From the IMG/VR virus record IMGVR_UViG_2579778539_000003: a stretch of 50,145 nt of DNA; one strand, 5' to 3'. This document shows, piece by piece, positions 1 through 41,220 of the stretch (positions within the stretch are counted from its first letter, which is position 1; each line of letters opens with the position of its first letter). Source of the DNA: a virus. Taxonomy: Duplodnaviria > Heunggongvirae > Uroviricota > Caudoviricetes. Under the pieces are notes generated by a model, which did no database searches, was not told where the DNA came from, and saw only the letters and a program-made list of their open reading frames with translations. The position numbers and the translations under genes are program-made.

Positions 1-1284
1 TTACAGACTTCTGGAAGGTTGCGCAGCTCTTACAACACGCGGTTGATCTTCCGCAGCGTCTTCCAGCGCACTTAAATCACGGTCTTTCACCTCTGGCATT
101 TTCAGCGCAGAGATTAAACCAATCACTGAATATGCCATGATCATAATGGCGATCGGATACCAGGATTCCGTCATGGTGCAGAAAATACCCGCCAGGATAG
201 GACCAAAACCGGAAGCGATAAGACCACCAATTTCTTTAGAAATAGCCATCCGGGTAAAGCGGTTTTTACAGCCGAACATTTCTGCCATGGTAATGTTTTC
301 CAGAGCAAATAATCCCAGCACCGCACAGTTATGAATCACAATCAGTGCAACCATAATGGTGCTCGGGGCATAGCTTTTATCTACAATGATAGAAAGCATT
401 GGCCATGCCAGCACAATCGCGGAGGTATTCATAATAATATACGGGATCCGGCGACCAATTTTATCGGATAACCAACCAAGGAACGGAATGGTCATAAAGC
501 CGAGAATCGAACTGATCATCAATGCATCTGTTGGAATTGCTTTGTTAAACAATAACGTCTGCACTAAATAGCCTGCAAGGAAAGTCTGAATTAACCCGGA
601 GTTACCCGCCTGACCAAAACGCAGCCCTGTTGCCAGCCAGAAGGATTTGCTCTGGAACATGCTACCAGCAGGTGCAGGTTTTGCTGTCGGTTGGTTACTG
701 TCGTTAACCTTCTCAAAGACCGGGCTTTCTTTCAGATTCATACGCAACCAGATAGCAAAGACCATCACGACAACGCTCGCCAGGAACGGTATACGCCATC
801 CCCACGCCAGCAGTTCCTCTTTACTGAGAATGAAGAACATAAAGGCCCAGATTGCCGTTGCGCTCAAGGTTCCGCAGTTAGTTCCCATAGCCACAAATGA
901 GGAGATAATTCCGCGCTTACCTTTTGGCGCATATTCCGCCAGCATCGTACCGGCACCGGAAATTTCCGCACCTGCACCCAACCCCTGAATAATACGCAAC
1001 GTCACCAGCAAGATGGGTGCAAAAACACCAATCTGTGCATAGGTCGGTAACACACCAATTAAGGTGGTACAGATCCCCATCATGGTGATGGTAATAAAGA
1101 GCACTTTTTTACGCCCTATTCTGTCGCCCATTTTGCCGAAAATAAATGCTCCGACAATACGCGCCACATAACCTGCACCGTAGGTTCCCATTGCCAGAAT
1201 TAACGCCATTGCCGTTGATGATTCAGGAAAAAATATTTCATGAAACACTAACGCTGCGCCGAGCGAATATAACTGGAAATCCAT
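1..1284 (-). CDS. ydfJ: MFS (metabolite:H+ symporter family) transporter, YdfJ-like; apparently 5'-truncated at the prophage junction
   Basis: 427-aa ORF with GDRIGRKK loop motif typical of MHS transporters; first Met falls inside the conserved TM1 motif region and an in-frame TGA lies 2 codons upstream (1288-1290). Confidence 0.8.
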   Translation of the reverse strand: MDFQLYSLGAALVFHEIFFPESSTAMALILAMGTYGAGYVARIVGAFIFGKMGDRIGRKKVLFITITMMGICTTLIGVLPTYAQIGVFAPILLVTLRIIQGLGAGAEISGAGTMLAEYAPKGKRGIISSFVAMGTNCGTLSATAIWAFMFFILSKEELLAWGWRIPFLASVVVMVFAIWLRMNLKESPVFEKVNDSNQPTAKPAPAGSMFQSKSFWLATGLRFGQAGNSGLIQTFLAGYLVQTLLFNKAIPTDALMISSILGFMTIPFLGWLSDKIGRRIPYIIMNTSAIVLAWPMLSIIVDKSYAPSTIMVALIVIHNCAVLGLFALENITMAEMFGCKNRFTRMAISKEIGGLIASGFGPILAGIFCTMTESWYPIAIMIMAYSVIGLISALKMPEVKDRDLSALEDAAEDQPRVVRAAQPSRSL

Positions 1285-1400: not shown

Positions 1401-1455
1401 GGTGATGCTGCCAACTTACTGATTTAGTGTATGATGGTGTTTTTGAGGTGCTCCA

Positions 1456-1731
1456 GTGGCTTCTGTTTCTATCAGCTGTCCCTCCTGTTCAGCTACTGAC
1501 GGGGTGGTGCGTAACGGCAAAAGCACCGCCGGACATCAGCGCTATCTCTGCTCTCACTGCCGTAAAACATGGCAACTGCAGTTCACTTACACCGCTTCTC
1601 AACCCGGTACGCACCAGAAAATCATTGATATGGCCATGAATGGCGTTGGATGCCGGGCAACTGCCCGCATTATGGGCGTTGGCCTCAACACGATTTTACG
1701 TCACTTAAAAAACTCAGGCCGCAGTCGGTAA
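1456..1731 (+). CDS. insA: IS1 InsA
   Basis: 91-aa [27 protein letters not shown]..., recognisable IS1 InsA. Confidence 0.9.
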
Positions 1732-2153
1732 CCTCGCGCATACAGCCGGGCAGTGACGTCATCGTCTGCGCGGAAATGGACGAACAGTGGGGCTATGTCG
1801 GGGCTAAATCGCGCCAGCGCTGGCTGTTTTACGCGTATGACAGTCTCCGGAAGACGGTTGTTGCGCACGTATTCGGTGAACGCACTATGGCGACGCTGGG
1901 GCGTCTTATGAGCCTGCTGTCACCCTTTGACGTGGTGATATGGATGACGGATGGCTGGCCGCTGTATGAATCCCGCCTGAAGGGAAAGCTGCACGTAATC
2001 AGCAAGCGATATACGCAGCGAATTGAGCGGCATAACCTGAATCTGAGGCAGCACCTGGCACGGCTGGGACGGAAGTCGCTGTCGTTCTCAAAATCGGTGG
2101 AGCTGCATGACAAAGTCATCGGGCATTATCTGAACATAAAACACTATCAATAA
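1650..2153 (+). CDS. insB: IS1 InsB frame (expressed as InsAB' transposase by -1 frameshift in the A-run near 1706-1716)
   Basis: 167-aa ORF overlapping insA 3' end in -1 frame; TTAAAAAACTC slippery region. Confidence 0.85.
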
Positions 2154-2168
2154 GTTGGAGTCATTACC

Positions 2169-2663: not shown

Positions 2664-2777
2664 ATGAACAGCATACTGATAATCACTTCTCTCCTTATCA
2701 TATTCAGCATTTTTAGTCATGCCCTAATAAAATTAGGGATTGGCATATCCAATAACCCAGACAAAACCGATGTATAA
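2664..2777 (+). CDS. Candidate 37-aa hydrophobic small protein ([37 protein letters not shown])
   Basis: ATG preceded by GAGG 5 nt upstream; single predicted TM helix; below the ORF-track size cutoff. Confidence 0.3.
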
Positions 2778-2845
2778 GTCAACATATCCTGAATCAGACA
2801 TACAATATCGCAATGAAAATCAATAATATTTTAAGGAATATCTTC

Positions 2846-3079
2846 ATGAAATCAAAAGACACCCTAAAGTGGTTCCCTGCGCAGCTTCCTGAAGTAAGAA
2901 TTATCCTAGGGGATGCTGTAGTGGAAGTAGCAAAACAGGGAAGACCTATCAATACCAGAACATTGCTTGATTACATTGAAGGAAACATAAAGAAAAAATC
3001 ATGGCTGGATAACAAAGAATTATTACAAACAGCGATATCAGTTCTTAAAGACAACCAAAATTTAAATGGTAAAATGTAA
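2846..3079 (+). CDS. ydfK: YdfK-like small protein (Qin prophage, cold-shock associated)
   Basis: 77-aa product from MKSKDTLKWFPAQL...; AAGGA RBS upstream of ATG at 2846; synteny with pin. Confidence 0.7.
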   Translation: MKSKDTLKWFPAQLPEVRIILGDAVVEVAKQGRPINTRTLLDYIEGNIKKKSWLDNKELLQTAISVLKDNQNLNGKM

Positions 3080-3395
3080 TATAATAAACTTACTTTTTTA
3101 TCATTTTTCCACTTTAACAACATTTTGCTCCACTTTTCCACGACCAAACAACTTAAAATCTGGTTAAAATAACACGAAACACTATTCTTCTTCCTTGAGT
3201 CCGCCCGGAACTCGAAAAACAAACCGAGTTAAAGCCATTTTTCACAAAATCGATTTTGGGTCTCACCAAAATTACGGGGTTGCATACGCATTCGTTTATT
3301 TTCGAACGTGTACATACAAATGTGCACAAAAATAATCAAAATTATTTTCTGCGATGCATTATGATATGAACACCAATTTCGTATAGAGTCTCACT

Positions 3396-3986
3396 ATGTC
3401 TCGAATTTTTGCTTACTGTCGGATATCAACGCTGGATCAGACCACCGAAAATCAACGCCGGGAAATCGAAAGTGCAGGTTTTAAAATCAAACCTCAGCAA
3501 ATAATCGAAGAACACATTAGCGGCTCAGCAGCAACCAGTGAGCGTCCTAGTTTTAACCGGTTGCTTGCTCGCCTGAAATGTGGTGATCAATTGATTGTGA
3601 CAAAACTGGATCGCCTTGGTTGTAATGCAATGGATATCAGGAAAACAGTGGAACAACTGACCGAAACAGGTATCAGAGTGCATTGCTTAGCATTGGGGGG
3701 CATTGACTTGACCAGTCCAACAGGAAAAATGATGATGCAAGTAATTTCAGCAGTTGCTGAATTTGAACGAGACCTTTTACTTGAACGCACTCATTCCGGG
3801 ATAGTAAGAGCCCGCGGCGCAGGGAAACGTTTTGGTCGACCACCTGTGTTAAATGAAGAACAGAAACAGGTGGTATTCGAACGAATTAAGTCAGGTGTAA
3901 GTATAAGTGCCATTGCCCGGGAATTCAAAACCTCGCGGCAAACCATTTTAAGAGCCAAAGCAAAACTTCAGACACCTGACATATAA
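3396..3986 (+). CDS. pinQ: Serine DNA invertase (Pin/Gin/Hin/Cin family)
   Basis: 196-aa [23 protein letters not shown]... with catalytic-Ser N-terminal resolvase domain and C-terminal HTH. Confidence 0.9.
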
Positions 3987-4083
3987 AAAATAATCTCGGT
4001 GTGAGATGCTTTACGTCTTCCAAGCCCCCTTCCTTGCCGTAAATGGAAAGATACATCTAATTAAAGAATTTATATGTTTTACC

Positions 4084-4659
4084 CTACGGCAGTGCTGGCC
4101 ATTCAATATCCTGTGCAGTTGACGTATCAACACGGTTCAGCAATACCCGATACTTTTTCCATGCTTCCAGCAACGAGATTTCTTCCTCCGTTGCAATTTC
4201 CAGATCTGCAGCATCCTGAAGCGGCGCAATATGCTCACTGGCTACCTGCATCAGGTTGTTTTTTGTTTCTTCCGCCTCCCGGATCCGGAACAGTTTTTCT
4301 GCTTCCGTATCCTTCACCCAGGCTGTGCCGTTCCACTTCTGAAACTCCCCTTCCGGCGATAACCAGGTAACATTTTTCGGTAACGGACCGAGTTCAGAAA
4401 TAAATAACGCGTCGCCGGAAGCCACGTCATAAACCGTTTTACCCCGATGATCTTCAACGAGATGCCACGATGACTCATCACTGTTGAAAACAGCCACGAA
4501 GCCAGCCGGAATATCTGGCGGTGCAATATCGGTACTGTTTGCTGGCAGACCTGTATGAGGCGGAATATATGCATCACCTTCACCAATAAATTCATTAGTT
4601 CCGGCCAGCAGATTATAAATTGTTATGGTCCGTGGTTGTTCACTCATTCTGAATGCCAT
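4084..4659 (-). CDS. tfaQ: Tail fibre assembly chaperone Tfa
   Basis: 191-aa [23 protein letters not shown]...; start ATG overlaps stf true-frame stop (TAATG). Confidence 0.9.
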
Positions 4660-7600
4660 TATGCAAGCCTCACAATATAGTTAAATGCGATGTTTTTGAC
4701 GGTGTTTTCCGCGTTACCAGCAGCGTTAACGGTGATGGTGTGTCCATGTGAGCCAATCGCAACGGAGTGCGTATGAGCACCAATACCGACAGTATGTGCG
4801 TGTGCACCTGCGCTTGCAGAGTACCCGATACAGAGTGCGTATGAGCGCCTGCAGAAGAAGTGTTAACACTGTATTTAGAATAATCAGGTGATCCACTTCC
4901 CGGAGCACCACTGGAACCACCTGAAACAAATGTCATCGAATGGGTATGTGCACCGGCTGAAGCAGCCGTACCGCTAACACTATGGGTATGTGCACCAGTG
5001 TTATTCGTGGATTTAGTGCCGTAATCAAACGATGATGTGGTTTTCGTCCCCAAATCCGTACTGGATGCGCTGGCGCTGTGGGTGTGCGATTTAATGCCGT
5101 CCTGTTCCTGAGACAATACGGCACGACCACTGGCGGGCTTGCCCTTAATCGTCCAGCCACGCATATCAGGAATAACGCCTGACGGATAAGCCACTGCAAG
5201 TTTCGGGTATGCAGATTTGTCAAAAGTCTGCCCCTGCATCAGGGCATAGCCAGACGGAACGGTATCTGATGGCCACGGGATTGGTGCGCCGACTGGGTAG
5301 CTTTCTGGTGGAAGATTTTTCGAGGTATAAACTTCTGCCCAGTCATCCTCAAAACCATAACCGTCTCTTGAAGAACGGTAGAACAGACCACCATTTCTGT
5401 AATGCGCCTTCATCTGCAGGGTCCGGCAACTTCCGACTCCGGTATAGAAGTTAACCAGAATATAGCTGTCGCCAGAGCGAGTGACATTGTAAGCGCCTGA
5501 TTCGGCATTCCATGGAACGCCACCATCCGCATCGGCATATGTATCCGTTGCCCTTCTGGCAAAAGCAGCCACATGCGCGGCGGTTAAAGTAATATCTTTG
5601 GAACCATCAAACTCAACACCAGAAACCCGTCTTGGCGTTTGCAGCTTTGTTGCTGTTAATGCATTACCGTTCAGACTTGCGGACAGTTTGGTTCCAATAA
5701 CCAGTTCGCCGGTTGCGTTATCAATAGCAAACGGTCTTAATGTATTCCAGCCACCATAAACATCACCTTGATTGGTAAGCAGCAGGTAAGTTTTAGCGCC
5801 ATCATTACGCCATAATGCACCATACTCTCCACCTATCATTCGAATCTGATTACCACCACGCGCTACAATTTCGTCTGTGGCAAAAAGTTTTTTGCACGAC
5901 AAGTTATCGTTAACGATTAACGAATGAGACTCATAAAAACCACGCCCACTCTTAAAATCAAGGATAACGTCCGCCGCGATACATTCAGTCGCTGGATTTG
6001 TTGCCCCAAACTTATAGGTCGTATCATTAACAACGAGATCAGCACCAGGTGCGGATATTGACAGGCCATCTTCGATAAACGCAAAAACAGGGAAAGCAGC
6101 GCCATCAACATAGAACACAGAGCGCAAATCATCGCCCTTATTACTCATCATTATTGAGTGGATGGCTCGTTCATTGTTTTGATATTGCCAGAACATTCCA
6201 TAAGCATAACGCCCCCTGTCAGTCCAGCCACCAGGCATAACAAATCCGTTAAACTCGCAGTTATTCATCGGATCGCCTGCGGTTCGCGTTGCCGTGGTGA
6301 TAATGACCCTTGATGCCAGTTCGCTTACTGAGCCAGCAGAACGCATAACAACAACAGGGTAATATTTTCCAGATGTTGCACCTGCAGGAGCGTTAACCCG
6401 CACATAACGCATACCACGCTTATCAGCAAAGTCTGTTTTACTGACCGCGTTAATGTTGTTCAGGAAGCGTCCCTTATCGGGTATATCAGTGCCGTTCTGG
6501 TCTTTCTGCAGACGTTTCTCTGCATTGTCATAGGCTGATTTTACTGCCTTTGGCGTTGCCGCCAGCGTTTCAGACGTACTGTTGGTCGCACTGCTGAGCT
6601 GTACTATCCCCTTTTTCGTCGTGCTCGCATCCTCAAGCGCCACGGCGGATGCAATATCCTCTGCCCGTTTTGCTGCTGTCTCGGCGCGCGTTGCCGCGGA
6701 TTCCGCCGTACTTTTGCTCTGAGCTGCCGCCGTCGCACTGCCAGCTGCCTATGTCGCCTTCGTGGATGCCGTCGTGGCGCTGCCCTTCGCTGCTGACGCC
6801 TGTCTGGTCGCCTCATCTTTTGAAGCAGACGCCGATGATGCCGATGACGCCGCCGAACTGGCGGACGATGCGGCAGCCGTTTTTGAGGATTCTGCGCTGG
6901 TTTCCGACGCTTTCGCGTTCGTTTCGGATGTCTTCGCTGCGGAAGCAGACCTCGCTGCTGCGCTGGCCTGTTCAGTGGCTTCGCCAGCCTTCGTTGTGGC
7001 TGTTGAAGCAGACGATGCGGCGCTTTCTGCCGATTTTCCGGCGGCGGTGGCACTGGCTGAGGCCTGCCCGGCACTTGTTGACGCTGCACTGGCAGACGAC
7101 GCAGCCGCTGTTTTTGAGCCTGCCGCAGCCGAGGCGCTCTGTCCCGCTGCCGTTTCAGAAGACCTGGCGTTCGTCTCGGACGTTTTTGCCGCCTTCGCGG
7201 AAGTTCCTGCCGCTGTTGCCGAGGAGGCTGCACGACTGGCGCTCGAGGCTGCGCTCGTTTCTGATGATTTTGCCGCCTCTTTTGAAGCCGACGCATCCCT
7301 GGCTGAGGTGGCAGCTTCTGACGCTTTCGTGGTCGCGGTGGATGCAGAAGTGGCGGCTGATTGTTCTGACGCTGCCGCATTCGTTTCTGACGTTTTCGCC
7401 GCACCGGCACTGGTAGCCGCCGCGCTTTTTGAGGACTCTGCAGCGGCAGCACTTTTTGAGGCTTCAGTGGCCTTTGTTGATGCCGTTCCTGCGCTGGAAG
7501 ACGCTGACTGAGCCGACGACGCGGCCTGTCCGGCTGACGTGCTGGCTGCACGTGCTGAATCTGCAGCATCAGTCGCACGGGTTGCCGCCTCACTGGCAGA

Positions 7601-8008
7601 TGTGCTGGCATCACTGGCTGACTTCTTTGCGGCTGCCGTGTTCTGTGCCACCACGGACGCGTTACGCGCCACCTCTTCCACCATCAGTTCAAAACGACGC
7701 AGTGCCTCCGGACGGGCATCATCCTCCGTCATGGCACCGAGAAAATCATTCAGCGTACCGGGTTGAGAATCTTCATACACGGTGATGGTCCCGGCATGTG
7801 ACGGCGGGAATCCCTCCACCAACAGAATAACGCTGTACTGACCGTACTCAACGTCCATGCTGTAACGCCCGGCTTCATCCGGATTTTCTGAGGCCAGCGT
7901 GTTCACCACCACAGTGGTACTGTTACGTTTTGCTTTCAGCTGGATTGTGCAGTTCTGTACCGGTTTTCCTGTGCCGTCTTTCAGTACACCTGAAATCTTT
8001 ACTGCCAT
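4659..8008 (-). pseudogene. stf: Side tail fibre Stf (StfR-like, about 1116 codons) disrupted by an in-frame amber (6749-6751) and a 1-nt deletion near 4819-4821
   Basis: ORFs 6749-8014 and 4670-6643 are in the same frame, separated only by TAG; C-terminal 50 codons read out of frame, the other frame gives ...[15 protein letters not shown]...[11 protein letters not shown] ending at TAA 4659-4661. Confidence 0.8.
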
Positions 8009-8018
8009 ATTCACCCCA

Positions 8019-8046
8019 CAAAAAAGCCCGCCTGAACCGGCGGGCT
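8019..8046 (-). terminator. Rho-independent terminator downstream of lom
   Basis: AGCCCGCC-TGAACC-GGCGGGCT hairpin followed by U-run on the minus strand, immediately before the stf start. Confidence 0.5.
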
Positions 8047-8072
8047 GTCATAACACTGTGTTACCTGGCTAA

Positions 8073-8672
8073 TCAGAATTTATAACCGACACCCACGATG
8101 AAACCGTCAGTGCGCCAGTCGCCACTGCCGGAGCCTTCATAAGCAATATCAATGGCCACGGATTCGGTCGGGTTAAACTGCACGCCAGCTCCCCACGCCA
8201 GAGACGTGTTGCTGTGGCGACCGTCATCACTTCCTGTCAGCACATCGTGCGTTTTCCCCGTATTGTCGGTCACCTGCAGATAATCCCCGGAGAAAGTCGA
8301 CACACGGCTGTAAGCCACACCCGCCATCGCATACGCGCTGAACCATTCATTCACGCGCACAGACGGCCCCGCCATCACGCTGAACCAGCGGTTACGCACG
8401 GAATCTTCATGCCAGCGGGTATCGCTGTAATGCGTTTTTTGCTCATCTTCAGCGTTGGCATAACTGAATGACGTAATCAGCCCCAGCGTGTCCGTAAACT
8501 CATAACGGTATTTCACGTTAATCCCGTTCAGATTATCGCTGCCGGGAGCGTTCGTACGGGCATGAAGATACCCTGCGCTCAGTGTGGCCTGCTGCTCAGA
8601 CGCCCATGCAGGCGCACCGGATACGGCCAGACAGATGGCTGTGGACAAAATGGCTGCACAAACTTTACGCAT
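8073..8672 (-). CDS. lom: Lom outer-membrane protein (Ail/Lom family beta-barrel)
   Basis: 199-aa ORF with signal peptide and C-terminal ...GVGYKF; lambda position between J and stf. Confidence 0.9.
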
Positions 8673-8739: not shown

Positions 8740-11700
8740 TCAGCTGATACTGATGCCTGCGGTGGCTTTCTTCATCACCACAACCAGCAAATCGCTGATA
8801 CTTGCTGTGGGATACCAGTCATTTACCAGCCATGCTGACACCGAAAACTCCAGCGTCATGTGGCCGTGACCAGCTGGCATATCAATAACACCACTGTAAA
8901 TCAGCGTATTATCCAGCGCGGTACGGTTATAAATTTCAGCACCATTTTTCTTCACTATCAGGCGGCATGAGGAGTAAATATCAGTATGCTCTCTCTCATG
9001 TTTAGCACCGCTGAATGCCACCGCCGGAATAACAATCTGCCGGTCAAACGGCTGATCGTCATAAATCCTGACGGTAATGGTCCCTGATGGCCACCGCTCC
9101 GGTGCCCGGGAGTCCCGCGGGAAAGCCTTACCCACTGTTTTGACAATATCGCCTTCAATCTGGTTGGCTGACAGTTTCCCTTTAATCTGACAGTTTTCAT
9201 TTATCGTAACGTTGTTGAGCGTCCCGGCGTTCGCATTCACACTGCCACTGATAACTGCATTTTTAGCGGTCAGCTTTCCGTCCGGTGTCAGGGAAAATGC
9301 AGGAGGATTACCGCCGCTGGTAATGGTGGGAGCCGTCAGATATTTCAGGAACACTTCATTCATGAATATCTGATCACCCTGACCAACAAACATCGGTTTT
9401 GTGTTGCCATTTGCAGGATTAATCATCGCAATCCTGTCTGCCGCCAGCAGCACCTGACTCTGCATGCCGTCGGGGGTGTTCTCAATACCGGCACCGATAC
9501 CCGCAATATAAAGGCGTCCGTCCTGCATCTGCTGCAGCTTCACAGCCCACATGCTGTTCAGATTATTATTTGTATCAACCTGAACCTTCTGTATCTGCTG
9601 GATCGCTGCACTCTGGTCTTCCAGTTTCTTATTGACGGTCTGTGTGATTTCATTGCTGACATCCGTAATGGATGTCCTGATTTCAGCCAGGTCAGGCGCA
9701 AGCTGACCGTTATCAATCTGCGTCCACAGCTCCTGAGCCAGATGGGTTTTCCCTATCTCGCCTTTGAAAAAATCCAGATAGCCGGATGCGTCATCACTCG
9801 GCTGACCAACAGCCTCCACGAATGCCGATTTGCCAACGGTGTTCACACTGCGAACGTAAAAATAATAATTATGGCCCGGCCTGATATTGATACTGGCGGC
9901 TATCCAGTACAGCGCCGTGCCAAGATAGCGTGCTGTGGTTTCAACCTGCCTGATATCCGCAATCCGCTTTTCCGAGAACCAGAACTCAAACTGTACCGTC
10001 GGATCATAAACCGCAAGATGCGGCGTGGCGGTTATCTGAAAATAGCCCGGCGTCAGCTCAATCCGCGACGGCGCTGCCGGTGCGGCAATCCGGAACGATA
10101 CCGACGCCGGATCGCCCTGCTGCCCCCACGCATTTACTGCCCGGACTGTCAGCCTGTAGTTCCCCAGAGCCAGTTGTGTGAAGCGGTAAGTGGTTTCCGT
10201 CGTCCGGGCCGTGCTGACCAGCCGCTCACTGCCGTCATCCGCTGCCACGGTCAGGCGAAGCAGGAAGCTCACGCCCTTCACCACCTTCGGCGTGTCCCAG
10301 CGGGCCAGCACCTGGTATTCCCCGCTGTCTGCAGTGACTTCTGCGGTCAGGTGCTGCACCGCTGGCGGCGTGACACCGTTCACCGTGCCACTCTGTTCGC
10401 CGTCAAAGTGCGCCCCGTTATCCACGATGACCTCTTTTTCCGGCACATGCTGCACGGCGGTGATGGCATACGTGCCGTCGTCGTTCTCACGGATACTCAC
10501 GCAGCGGAACAGTCGCTGGCGCAGCCTCGGCAGCTTCAGCCCCCATACGCTGTATTCAGCAACACCGTCAGGAACACGGCTCACTTTCACCTTCACGCCG
10601 TCGGTGACGGACTGAACCTCCACGCTGACCGGATTGCCACTTCCGTCAACCAGGCTTATCAGCGTGGTACCGGAGGATGGCAGCGTGATTTCACGGTCAA
10701 GCGTCAGCGTCCGGGTCAGGCTGTTCACCGCCAGCACACGACCACCGGTGCTGATACCGGCATAGTCATCATCACAGATTTCAATAACATCGCCCGGTAC
10801 ATGGCGAAGCCCTTCCGCACCCACGCTGAAATCCACGGTCTGCGTTTCCAGCAGCTCCGTTTTAATCAGCCACAGCCCGGCTCGGTGTGCCTGCCCCCGG
10901 CTGGTACAGCCAAAGGCATCCATCTTCGTGACATTACGACCGTAACGGGCAATGGCCTGCGTGTCCTCCACAAGCTCTGTCGCCGTCTCCCAGCCGTTAT
11001 CCGGGTCAATCCAGTTCACCTCAACGGCATTATGGCGGTCCTTCAGGGCGCTGAAGCTGTAGCGGAACGGCGCGCCATCATCCGGCATCACCACATTACT
11101 GCGGTTATAGGTCCACACCTTATCCGACGGTCGGTCCTGCACGAACGTCAGCGTCTGCCCGTTCCATACCGGCATACAGCGCATCGCCGAGCAGAAATCA
11201 CTGAGCACATCCCACGCCTTGCGCTGTGTGGTCAGCCAGGCATTACAGGTGATGCGCGGCTCCGTGCTGCCAAAGCCGTCCGGCACCGACTGGTCGCAGT
11301 ACTGGCCGATGACATACAGCGCCCATTTATCCACATCCGCTGCACCAAGACGTTTCCCCATGCCGTAGCGCGGATGGGGCAGCATATCCCACAGACACCA
11401 GGCCATGTTGTTGCTGTATGCCGGTTTAAACGTTCCGTCCCAGATACCGCTGTATTGCCGCGTCTGCGGGTTATAATTCGACGGCACCTGCAGAATACGC
11501 CCGCGCAGATGATAATTACGGCTCACCTGCTGGCTGCCGAACTGCTCCGAGTCCACCTGCACGCCGAACAGTGCCGTGTTCGGGTAGCACTGTTTCACAT
11601 CGATAATTTCGGTGTATGACGACCAGAGCGTTTTGTTCTGCAGCTGGTCTGTGGTGCTGTCCGGCGTCATCCTGCGCATCCGGATACTGAACGGGCGCGG

Positions 11701-12219
11701 CGGCAGGTTATCCACCACCACCGAGGCCAGATACTGTGAAGTGGTTTTACCCTTAATGGTGATGTCTTTTTCCGTCACCCAGCCACCGTTACGTTGTATC
11801 TGAACCAGCAGGTGGACTTCCGATGGATTCCTGTCCCCCTTTGAGGTGGTTTCCACCAGTGCCTGCACGCCGAAAGTAAAACGCAGACGGTCAATGTTTG
11901 CCGACGTGATGGTCCGGGTGATCGGCGTGTCATATTTCACTTCTGTACCGAGCACCGTCTCGGAGCCGGAGGATTCAAATCCCTCCGGCGGTGTCTGCTC
12001 CTGCTCACCGGCCCGGAACACCACCGTGACGCCGGATATATTGGTATTCCCCTCACTGTCCAGCACCGGCGTACTGTTCAGCAGCACGCTTTTTAATCCA
12101 TCCACCGGACCTTCAACCGGCCCTTCGCTGATGGCATCAATCACACTCAGCAGCTGCGTGGACTTCAGGTTGTCCTTCGCTTCGCGCGGGGTATGCCCCT
12201 TACTGCTGCCTTTACCCAT
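8740..12219 (-). CDS. J: Tail tip / host specificity protein J
   Basis: 1159-aa [24 protein letters not shown]...; recognisable lambda gpJ; synteny. Confidence 0.95.
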
Positions 12220-29823: not shown

Positions 29824-30185
29824 AATTATTACCTTTTGAAGAAATTAGCCCTTGGGCAGAATGGTCCGAAAAAAAATATCAGAGAGAAAAACCAACAAGG
29901 AAATCTCAAGAGGTACAAATAATAAAATTATAACAATGACTGCTTCAGATAAATTTGTAACAAACCAGAACACCATTAACGCATGATTAACCACCCATAG
30001 CAAGGATTACTTTTGTAAAGAAAAACACAGCAATGAAAGAATAGCTTTATTTATTAATAAAACGTGTCATTCTGATTAAGACCTTTTATCTTACCCTTAA
30101 GATTTCAGGAATTTTGGCTCATGGAAGAGTCCTTTTTATTTAAATTTTACATTCCGCGATGTAAATGTTCCGATTTAATATTACC

Positions 30186-38149: not shown

Positions 38150-39765
38150 ACATTAGCATAGGCTATTTACCATAACGCCTCATTACGCGCACCGCCCAGA
38201 CTGACTCAGCGCGTTTCTGGCATATCCCCGGTAAAACAAGTAACAAACCACCCGAAAATGAACACCAGAAACGCGACTTAAGAATCTACCCTATGAATGG
38301 ATATGCACTCAACCGAATCGATCTTGGTTTCAATCTTTTTTATCGGGATCAGGCTTCTTTTTAGGTAACTTCGGGGGCTTAACTTGCTGATGACTTTGCG
38401 TTCGGCGCGTAAGCCAGGGATGGTCAGCTTTAGGTTTAACATAGTATTTTGAGCGTAAATCAATACGGGCATTATCCACTCGTTCATGGACACTCTTTTC
38501 ATCATCCAGTGGTATAGGCTCCGGGCCATCAACATACTTTTCCCAGCCCAGCGCTTTCCCGTCATACAGAACGTTAATTTCACCGTCAAAGTTCTCGCAT
38601 ACAGTAACAACCGAATGCCTAAGTCGATATCCCCGGCCCTCACTGCGTACCTGAAACGCACTGCTTTTGTACTGGAAAGTGAGATTTTTAGACAGAACGC
38701 GCTTCGCCTGTAGGCTGAAGATATAACCCAGTTCCTCTTCAGAATGGTGCACATCAAGATGAGCATTATCAGTAGTACGAGGCGACGTAGCGAACCGGTT
38801 GTTATAGGCTTCAATAAAGGTCGGCAACCATGCATTTGCTGTTTCAATATCACTGATATTCTGAAGCCGCATTTCTTTGACCAGCCTGTCCTGTAGTGTC
38901 TGATTGGCGCGCTCTACCCGCCCTTTTGCCTGCGGGCTGTTGGCATGGATTGGCTCGATGCCCAGTGTCTTTATCGCACGAGTGAACTGGGTCAGCTCAC
39001 CTTCCCGCTCTGGGTTATTTACCCTGAATATACTGTGTCTATCAGAGTAGAGAGCGAGCGGTACGCCATGATCATTAAGGTAACCCCGGAGGGTTTCCAT
39101 GTAAGCCCGGGTTGTTTCAGCAGGCACAAAACGCAACGCCATCAACGCACTGGTGGCATCATCAATGAAAACGATCAGTGTACATCTGGGGCCTCGATTT
39201 TCAAACCAGTCATGAGGTGAGCCATCAATCTGGATCAGTTCACCGTAAGATGGTCGTCGCATGCGGCGTTGATATATACGGGCAATTTTACGACGGCGTT
39301 CACGCCATAACCCCTCTTCTATCATCCACTTTCTGAGAGTTTCAACGGATAAAGATAAACCGTGTATCTCGCGCAATTTTTCGCACGCAAACGTAGGTCC
39401 AAAATCAGCGTAACGGCCTTTGAGGAGTGAAATTACTGTTGCTCTGAATTCAGTAGAAAAGGAATTATTAGGACGCTTTCCACGTCGGTGGGAAACCAGA
39501 CCAGAAGGCCCTTCATTTCTATACCGTTGCACCAGACGTTTAACCTGCCGAATAGAAATGCCAATGCGTGCCGCAGCTTGTTCCTGAATAATCTGAAGTC
39601 GGTGGAGTTCCTTATGACTCATCGTAACAGTCTCTTTGATCATGAAAAATCCCCCAGAGAATTGTCTGGGGACATTTTAGAATGGTTCAAAGGGGACATT
39701 ACAGCTTGGTGTTAACAATAGCCTGCTTCTCCGTGCCTTTCGGCACGTAAGAGGCTAACCTACAT
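38150..39765 (-). mobile_element. Putative single-ORF IS element (IS481-like); boundaries approximate
   Basis: Encodes a DDE/rve transposase; ends only tentatively placed from weak terminal similarity (TAGG...GCCTC.TTACG.G). Confidence 0.4.
38330..39643 (-). CDS. DDE-type (rve integrase-core) transposase with N-terminal HTH
   Basis: 437-aa ORF; HTH GISIRQVKRLVQRYRNEG; core IQIDGSPHDWF...VFIDDATS...SDRHSIF...; Lys-rich C-terminus. Confidence 0.8.
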   Translation of the reverse strand: MIKETVTMSHKELHRLQIIQEQAAARIGISIRQVKRLVQRYRNEGPSGLVSHRRGKRPNNSFSTEFRATVISLLKGRYADFGPTFACEKLREIHGLSLSVETLRKWMIEEGLWRERRRKIARIYQRRMRRPSYGELIQIDGSPHDWFENRGPRCTLIVFIDDATSALMALRFVPAETTRAYMETLRGYLNDHGVPLALYSDRHSIFRVNNPEREGELTQFTRAIKTLGIEPIHANSPQAKGRVERANQTLQDRLVKEMRLQNISDIETANAWLPTFIEAYNNRFATSPRTTDNAHLDVHHSEEELGYIFSLQAKRVLSKNLTFQYKSSAFQVRSEGRGYRLRHSVVTVCENFDGEINVLYDGKALGWEKYVDGPEPIPLDDEKSVHERVDNARIDLRSKYYVKPKADHPWLTRRTQSHQQVKPPKLPKKKPDPDKKD

Positions 39766-39977
39766 GTGTCTAGCATGAAATTGGCCTCAGATTAATGTTA
39801 AGCGTCTTGCAGGACGCGTAATGTTAACTGGGGCTTTTCTCTATCTGCCGTTGGTGTCCATGCCCGAGGCAGATAGCCTCAAGCACCCGCAGTCATTCTA
39901 CTTAACTAAGATTTCCCCGCAAACCGTTTTTGTCCAGCACAGTAAATATCCAACTAAACCAATGGAGTTCGCTGTAT

Positions 39978-40157
39978 TTACCGCCAGTATTCAATGCACA
40001 TGACCGCCATGAACACCCCTAAAAAAAGGGCATTTATATATCCAAATATTAATATCAAAACATCAACTTTTTCCATATACCTTGCTGTGAAGATGATGGG
40101 CATACATGATGCGAACAACCAGAACGCAACAAACAAAAACTGCAATGCGTTTTTCAT
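39978..40157 (-). CDS. Candidate 59-aa two-TM small membrane protein
   Basis: ATG preceded by AGGAGG (spacer AATA); MKNALQFLFVAFWLFASCMPIIFTARYMEKVDVLILIFGYINALFLGVFMAVMCIEYWR. Confidence 0.45.
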   Translation of the reverse strand: MKNALQFLFVAFWLFASCMPIIFTARYMEKVDVLILIFGYINALFLGVFMAVMCIEYWR

Positions 40158-40399
40158 TATTCCTCCTACAATCAATGTGCAATTACATTTAAACACACCT
40201 CAATTTGGCCGGACATATAAATATCTAAACCAGAAAAAATCACTTACATAGCGTTACAAACTCTTTAGTCTAAAGGTTCATCGTAAAACATTCCCCATAC
40301 TTATCAGTCCGTTCCGCGCCAGGTAGCTCATTGCCTTATCTGGCAACCTGTAATCAGGTTTCCGCTTTTTCAGTTGGCTGGTCGTTTAACCGACATAGT

Positions 40400-41220
40400 T
40401 AATCCATTAATCTAGTTGCCGGATGTTGGTGGATTTTCGCGTTTTAGTTGTTCATAAAAGTGCACAGCTTTAACCAGTTCTTCTGATGTAACTGGGACTG
40501 GTGAGGCAGTGAATAAGGCCTGAATTTGATAGTTCGGCCTGTCGTTACAATCCTCTTTTTTCGGTACATATTTCCAGTCACCAGACCACTACTTCCCCTG
40601 AAAGTCCGTAACGCCTTTTTTCACGTAGCGATATCGCCATGCCACTGGTTTTGCTTGCCCCGCCGTTTCATGCCCTTCCTGATAATTAATCTCGCTCATT
40701 CATCGCCCCACTCATCACAATATGCTTCGACCGGAGTTTTTCCCGCTTCATAGTCATCACGCTAGGATTCGACATCAGCAGCACTTCCACCGCGTAACTC
40801 ACCATAGTCCATTAATAGTTCATCCCGCTCTTCAAAACTGATGTTATATTTAGCTGAACAAAAATCAGCCACTTTGTTCTTCCTCATCGTCTTTTATTTC
40901 GTGGTATGAGTAATTGCAGTAGTTAAAGAAAATTTCTTATGCTCCGTCATGAATTTCCTCAGGTGTTGCGTCATCGTCCACTTCGAATACATCCTCAAAA
41001 TCTCCACCAGCTATTCCCGTTTCAATAATAATTTTGAACTTTCGCATTTCACTACCGCCCTTTCGGGCGGCCTCCTGATGTTCTGAGGGTGCAGAAATCC
41101 ATCCGGTTAAGGATTAAATTTTATTTACAGAACTGAATTTAATTATTCAGATATACGTATCTGTAGCCTTACGAATCTACTCACTGGATGCCTCTTTCAT
41201 AAAAATAATCCAGTGGGTTT
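40400..41220 (-). pseudogene. Decayed nin-region small ORFs (one about 96-codon frame interrupted by in-frame TAG at 40589-40591)
   Basis: Several short overlapping minus-strand ORFs with weak RBS; ...VTDFQGK*WSGDWKYVPKK... reads through an amber. Confidence 0.3.

Follow-up and report, generated by a model that had tools for sequence, protein, structure and literature searches.

The stretch of DNA analyzed here (the window; 50,145 nucleotides [nt], IMG/VR record IMGVR_UViG_2579778539_000003, Caudoviricetes) is a segment of an Escherichia coli chromosome in which ydfJ, at the Qin locus, is occupied by a complete ~46-kb lambdoid prophage. Our subject is stf, the side tail fiber gene of this prophage, which carries an in-frame amber codon and lacks one base near its 3' end. 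A first-pass annotation, made from the sequence without database searches, had proposed both lesions, and both hold up against intact alleles. The features on which the argument turns all lie on the minus strand and are as follows.

4659..8008, minus strand: stf, side tail fiber pseudogene, from the ATG at 8008 to the native TAA at 4661..4659
6749..6751, minus strand: amber codon TAG, codon 420, from GAG (Glu420) by a coding-strand G-to-T change at window position 6751
4819..4820, minus strand: site of the 1-nt deletion, one G gone between window positions 4820 and 4819, after codon 1063
4670..4819, minus strand: out-of-frame tail, 49 codons ending in SHLTIL plus TGA at 4672..4670; the end of the annotated 657-amino-acid (aa) open reading frame (ORF), ESL22102.1
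4659..4819, minus strand: native C-terminal coding sequence, now out of frame, 53 codons plus TAA at 4661..4659
4670..6643, minus strand: ORF as annotated in the source genome, 657 aa, with a GTG start past the amber codon and a frameshifted end
4740..5086, minus strand: His-box region with seven HxH motifs, placed by the restored protein and its alignment with phage T4 gp37
4084..4659, minus strand: tfaQ, intact tail fiber assembly chaperone gene (PF02413 Caudo_TAP, E = 7e-43)
8073..8672, minus strand: lom
8740..12219, minus strand: J

Two lesions in a side tail fiber gene

Translation of the minus strand from 8014 to 4650 gives a single long frame from the ATG at 8008 (N terminus MAVKISGVLKDGTGKPV), and a long Ala/Ser-rich repeat region downstream of the N terminus makes up the center of the gene. 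With both lesions repaired, Stf is 1116 aa long; putting the G back restores a 1116-codon gene that is collinear with intact alleles of 3351 nt (1116 codons). Full-gene alignment to intact stf alleles, the check that the first-pass annotation had proposed, was run with the RefSeq-annotated stf genes of E. coli 1303 and GB089 and confirms one missing G. The identity to the 3351-nt stf of E. coli 1303 is 99.2% with one gap, and this gap, the only one in the full-gene alignment, falls at 4820/4819, inside the interval 4811-4825 to which the deletion had been assigned. At the junction, ACT GCT GCA AGC has become ACT CTG CAA GC, the lost base being the G of the GCT codon. The same G is missing relative to the related prophage of ETEC1734 and to 138 public contigs with the intact junction (a 26-mer across it occurs in 65 viral and 73 metagenome contigs), so that, as in the stf pseudogene of laboratory lambda PaPa, a single-base indel separates the allele from its intact natural counterparts. 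The alignment to E. coli 1303 and GB089 also contains the second lesion, GAG to TAG at 6751, ~1.9 kb upstream of the deletion. The amber codon alone limits translation to a 419-residue N-terminal fragment.

The gene's own repeats tell the same story. His-box coding units (GAHTHS) are detectably repeated at 4762, 4830, and 4935 (repeat family D5), and when the paralogous copy at 5001..4940 (GGTACGGCTGCTTCAGCCGGTGCACAT, which includes AGCGGTACGGCTGCTTCAGCCGGTGCACAT) is laid against 4860..4795, a 1-nt gap is needed at the deletion spot. The missing base is thus visible in an upstream paralogous repeat, as had been claimed. The first-pass annotation had further judged the end of the annotated ORF implausible and pointed to a shifted frame whose TAA overlaps the tfa ATG. 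The translation does return the tail it quoted, with its stop at 4672..4670, and in the restored frame the native TAA (4661..4659) shares its final A with the tfa ATG (4659..4657). This TAATG stop/start overlap of stf and tfa is present in the restored frame only; ETEC1734 is annotated with the same layout, and the RefSeq annotation of intact relatives has the same 1-nt overlap. The native frame is not a product of chance, because the distance from junction to stop is exactly 56 codons in 125 of the 126 contigs that have the intact junction and reach the 3' end of the gene, and 124 of the 126 have the native C-terminal ending. Indels that break the frame in the last 300 nt are confined to a single contig and one further metagenome contig, the latter with a coverage of 1.2x.

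Based on its domains and its neighbors, this gene belongs to the lambdoid stf family. The restored protein has PF08400 (phage_tail_N) at residues 1-134 (E = 1e-71), followed in the Pfam results by PF21446, PF07484 (Collar), and PF03335. Besides the N-terminal domain, it has a Gp34_trimer-like domain, a Collar domain at residues 907-954, and phage fiber repeats. The gene lies downstream of J and lom and directly upstream of tfa, and tfaQ itself is 100% identical to tfaQ of ETEC1734. What the gene lacks is an uninterrupted ORF, given the TAG at codon 420 and the -1 frameshift after codon 1063, and it is therefore a pseudogene of the family.

An exact-sequence look-up identifies the annotated 657-aa ORF as ESL22102.1, hypothetical protein L476_01576 of E. 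coli BIDMC 39 (GCA_000492235.1, scaffold KI535383.1). The annotation can thus be corrected: the entry listed as hypothetical corresponds to the 3' part of an stf pseudogene and has a frameshifted end. Logan assemblies of public reads encode this 657-aa product, too. The same look-up with the 419-aa amber-truncated N-terminal product returned no match. We do not count this miss as evidence on the amber lesion, since the source annotation, which is without the 419-codon N-terminal stf fragment (8008..6749, minus strand), never calls that ORF. The source annotation does call a 245-aa ORF with no Pfam hit at 6774-7511 on the plus strand, antisense to the Ala/Ser-rich repeat of stf. As this repeat is GC-rich and poor in stop codons, the ORF is probably spurious.

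The Ala/Ser-rich repeat of stf also contains two dense, in-frame clusters of substitutions, at 6863-7166 (23 in ~300 nt) and at 7578-7702, as counted relative to ETEC1734, E. coli 1303, and GB089. The segment from 6850 to 7200, which contains the first cluster, has 100% identity with stf of strain OkiPb01685 and 99.7% with the other best matches listed. We considered and rejected the idea that this first cluster is further damage, given that it is in frame and a standing allele in OkiPb01685; as its sequence indicates, it represents a recombined mosaic segment rather than decay or new mutation.

Authenticity and rarity of the allele

Are the two lesions real? If they were artifacts of sequencing or assembly, the true stf would be intact, with errors in a repeat-rich region accounting for the missing G, for the T at 6751, or for the two together. 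The deletion does sit among the internal His-box repeats (family D5), the allele is seen in a single isolate, the source genome was assembled from short reads to scaffold level, and the Logan contig considered below breaks at IS1. In contrast, the Logan assembly of SRR850824 (a 29.5-kb contig), made independently, repeats both the deleted junction and the TAG and, over 15.5 kb, does not differ from the window (100% identity); the NCBI locus is 100% identical over 12.6 kb. The deletion context, ACTGCTGCA, is not a homopolymer, and the paralogous His-box repeats are only ~65 to 70% identical at the DNA level, too divergent for an assembly collapse. Nor is the assembly rich in errors, an idea that we rejected because only three indels separate the window from the 99.8%-identical ETEC1734 in 48 kb; apart from the deletion in stf there are just two, both in A/T runs. 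Thus, a second assembler working on the raw reads yields the same allele at a non-homopolymer site, and an assembly error in a repeat, the one outcome that would have undone the first-pass claim, is unlikely. We consider an artifact of any of these kinds very improbable.

Some points do weigh against reading the lesions as genuine mutations of the strain. The Logan contig probably derives from Illumina data of the same isolate and is then not an independent biological observation, and it excludes an artifact of the assembler, not one of the library, nor a mutation that arose in the sequenced culture. Moreover, the support for the lesions is at the level of assembled contigs (the NCBI scaffold and Logan).

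How widespread is the allele? An exact search with the 25-mer across the deletion junction came back empty from three collections, namely, 185,579 species-representative genomes, the JGI/ENA metagenome contigs, and IMG/VR. This search, which might have supplied independent isolates, gained none and shows only that the allele is private. The 27-mer across the amber junction is absent from the viral contigs of IMG/VR, the sole collection scanned for it. Among complete E. coli genomes, a 501-nt query over the deletion found 670 at a coverage of at least 80%, and in the best of these, at 99.8% identity, 502 record bases correspond to the 501 query bases; the best-matching genomes therefore hold one extra base. 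A query of window positions 6650 to 6850 found 3,613 complete genomes at a coverage of at least 80%, with none at 100% and the best at 99.5%, one base different; in the three relatives that we aligned directly, this base is the G at 6751. When short queries centered on each lesion were compared with 5,426 complete E. coli genomes, none matched at 100%, and the deletion is carried by none of the complete E. coli genomes searched. Both lesions, absent from all the collections searched, are therefore private to isolate BIDMC 39. They are also recent, since, apart from the two lesions, the sequence between the amber codon and the end of tfa does not differ from that of ETEC1734.

In total, we are highly confident that the locus records a genuine, recent, strain-private pseudogenization of stf in a full-length Qin-locus lambdoid prophage of E. 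coli BIDMC 39. The proposed history would comprise two independent point lesions, in either order: GAG to TAG at codon 420 and the loss of one G after codon 1063.

The gp37-type tip and what the frameshift removes

The part of Stf that the frameshift reaches has a structurally solved homolog. On the restored sequence, the C-terminal 216 residues (query residues 44 to 259) align end to end with residues 26 to 242 of chain A of PDB entry 2XGF (E = 3.2e-90), the crystallized receptor-binding tip of T4 gp37, and the last ~55 restored residues are almost identical to those of gp37. In T4, seven iron atoms along the needle of gp37 are coordinated by HxH motifs (PMC6957217, PMC11705849), this coordination has been described as critical for the folding of the fiber (PMC6957217), and the collar domain, D10, is built from residues 811 to 881 together with the C-terminal residues 1010 to 1026 (PMC6957217). 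The restored Stf has HxH motifs at residues 975, 1007, 1021, 1056, 1070, 1079, and 1088, in agreement with the number of iron atoms in gp37.

The frameshift after codon 1063 corresponds approximately to gp37 residue 973. It loses HxH motifs 5 to 7 (residues 1070, 1079, and 1088) and leaves four native motifs in place; the frameshifted tail gains a fortuitous VHTHI from CAC-rich sequence. The encoded frame thus falls short of the seven motifs of the restored protein, and the C-terminal strand that completes the collar is present out of frame only. The case maps where a truncation of a gp37-type tip removes three of the seven iron-binding motifs.

These correspondences mark the native end of Stf as a receptor-binding tip of the T4 gp37 type, a fold in which each chain extends along a trimeric needle and then returns, seven HxH motifs per chain coordinate iron, and the last ~17 residues complete the collar domain. 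In Stf, the replacement of the last 53 residues by 49 unrelated ones takes away HxH motifs 5 to 7 as well as the counterpart of the collar-closing end of gp37. With these elements lost, a product read through the amber codon by a suppressor should still fail to fold into a trimeric tip, and we infer that the tip would be unable to trimerize or fold even with the amber codon suppressed. By analogy to lambda PaPa, we likewise infer that any virions from this prophage would be without side fibers and would adsorb via J alone.

Could a full-length fiber still be made from this gene? The amber codon would have to be read through by a suppressor and the frameshift bypassed by programmed slippage. 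Nothing supports such recoding directly; the native 3' frame is still open, and tfa is intact. We found no suppressor tRNA in the window, which has no tRNA gene at all and therefore no phage-borne suppressor, and the sequence TCG GGT ACT CTG CAA offers no slippery heptamer of the form X XXY YYZ. Programmed recoding sites are conserved in relatives; in contrast, these two lesions are private, neither occurs in any relative, and the arrangement is absent from every collection searched. We thus reject a programmed frameshift, for which both a slippery site and conservation are lacking, and regard recoding as effectively refuted, with a probability close to nil; for practical purposes it is excluded.

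The resemblance of the restored tip to that of T4 is close. Residues ~810 to 1026 of gp37 are matched end to end, all seven HxH motifs are there, and the ending is nearly identical. Differences are found in the segment between HxH motifs 3 and 4, which is divergent in stf, in the downstream chaperone, which here is of the lambda Tfa type (PF02413), and in the fact that the tip is not translatable in frame in this genome. In T4, the segment between motifs 3 and 4 is the head, or tip, that contacts the receptor. Since it diverges here, we speculate that the receptor specificity may differ from that of T4 gp37.

The prophage, its locus, and known systems

Is stf the only casualty in this prophage? 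Relative to ETEC1734, the window has 93 substitutions and three single-base indels over 48 kb. The comparison took in 65 coding sequences (CDS) that ETEC1734 has intact; the window keeps 64 of them at full length, free of gaps and internal stops, and stf is the sole broken one. Two further ORFs are already pseudogenes in ETEC1734 and lie outside the count of 64 intact CDS. The early region of that reference prophage, which is otherwise intact (locus L003, 9114-11561, corresponding to ~38600-41050 of the window), has annotated pseudogenes, namely, a DUF7167 gene with an internal stop, a frameshifted hypothetical gene, and a partial ISNCY transposase, and the prophage lineage may not be fully functional regardless of stf. 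The two indels outside stf lie at window positions 29876 (A8 versus A7, near cspI) and 33012 (T7 versus T6, beside the start of cspF), both outside CDS as compared; these run-length differences could be real or homopolymer miscalls.

On the minus strand, the gene order is ydfJ' (1..1284), IS1 (1401..2168), ynfT, ydfK, pinQ, tfaQ, stf, lom, and J, and past J come tail and head genes, lysis genes, the dicA/dicB region, an exonuclease gene, and int. The stretch from 1401 to 2168, between ydfJ' and ynfT, is a 768-bp insertion relative to ETEC1734; it encodes InsA/InsB-like ORFs (Zn_ribbon_InsA and DDE_Tnp_IS1 in the source annotation) and is therefore a copy of IS1, inside which the Logan short-read contig stops. 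Adjoining tfa is pinQ (3396-3986, plus strand), an intact serine invertase gene with Resolvase and HTH_7 domains. An invertible tail fiber cassette beside pinQ, which could have offered an alternative C terminus, was considered and rejected: a search of 2700-8100, around tfa and stf, found no convincing inverted repeats, the best pair being 21 nt at 76%. The invertase encoded by pinQ therefore appears to have no segment to invert.

That stf is the only disrupted CDS of the 65 compared, and was hit twice, raises the question of whether its loss was selected. Inactivation might be favored if fast-adsorbing fibers are costly or if Stf harms the lysogen, the double hit then reflecting recurrent selection. 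If two lesions are placed at random by gene length, the probability that both fall in stf is 0.007, and the probability that both fall in any one gene is 0.036. The closest relative among complete genomes, VG888-46E9, has an IS1 inside stf that arose independently; laboratory lambda lost stf through a frameshift (PMC12617516); and a high adsorption rate driven by Stf is reported to be detrimental in biofilm-like settings (PMC2762979). Yet once the first lesion had struck, a second in stf was neutral and brings no added benefit, and a second neutral hit is what is expected when the other genes stay under purifying selection. The C-terminal module is nearly always in frame across the 138 public contigs, so that its loss is not the common state, and the sample is effectively one lineage plus anecdotes. 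We therefore judge selected loss unlikely, because a second hit in a dead gene fits neutral decay. Were it true, carrying a T4-like, fast-adsorbing fiber, or expressing it, would come at a cost.

The locus itself offers the nearest comparison. In VG888-46E9 (NZ_CP128581.1, locus L142, 7385-11511), the prophage likewise lies in ydfJ, flanked by ydfK, pinQ, and tfaQ, and its stf is inactivated, being split by IS1B, an event independent of the two lesions in BIDMC 39. The difference is one of means, since an IS1 insertion did there what two point lesions did here, in a 46-kb prophage that is otherwise complete. The defective Qin prophage of E. coli K-12 shares the locus, and there the same gene survives only as the stfQ (ydfN) pseudogene, inactivated by a large deletion. 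Based on the IS1 insertion and the K-12 remnant, stf inactivation at this locus is recurrent. Adding the double hit in BIDMC 39 suggests a further reading, in which resident lysogens repeatedly undergo selected loss of stf from their Qin-type prophages, mirroring the loss in laboratory lambda PaPa; we consider this reading unlikely. The preferred reading, a genuine and recent pseudogenization private to one strain, describes an ordinary double-lesion pseudogene of a well-understood family, with no new mechanism or system.

Among phages, laboratory lambda is the closest parallel, and the first-pass annotation was apt in kind when it heard in this allele an echo of the lambda frameshift (PMC12617516, PMC9659904). 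The stf of lambda PaPa is split by a frameshift into orf-401 and orf-314, and the phage has thereby lost the side fibers with which Ur-lambda binds OmpC and adsorbs faster (PMC12617516, PMC9659904). The two genes share the order J-lom-stf-tfa and an N-terminal PF08400 domain, and in both a single-base frameshift splits or truncates a lambdoid stf while J, lom, and tfa are intact; at the DNA level, the region also matches lambda orf-314 and tfa, with 90% identity over part of the query. They differ in that the frameshift here lies 53 codons from the 3' end and not in mid-gene, that a second lesion, the amber at codon 420, is present here, and that the center of the gene is an Ala/Ser-rich repeat module of the stfR/stfQ type. 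They also differ in history: ours is a resident prophage of a clinical isolate, not a laboratory-passaged phage, and its fiberless state is a predicted one. Nonetheless, in BIDMC 39 the stf frameshift of lambda PaPa has a clean counterpart in nature, and if the prophage is inducible, it would offer a natural fiberless/repairable pair for studies of adsorption.

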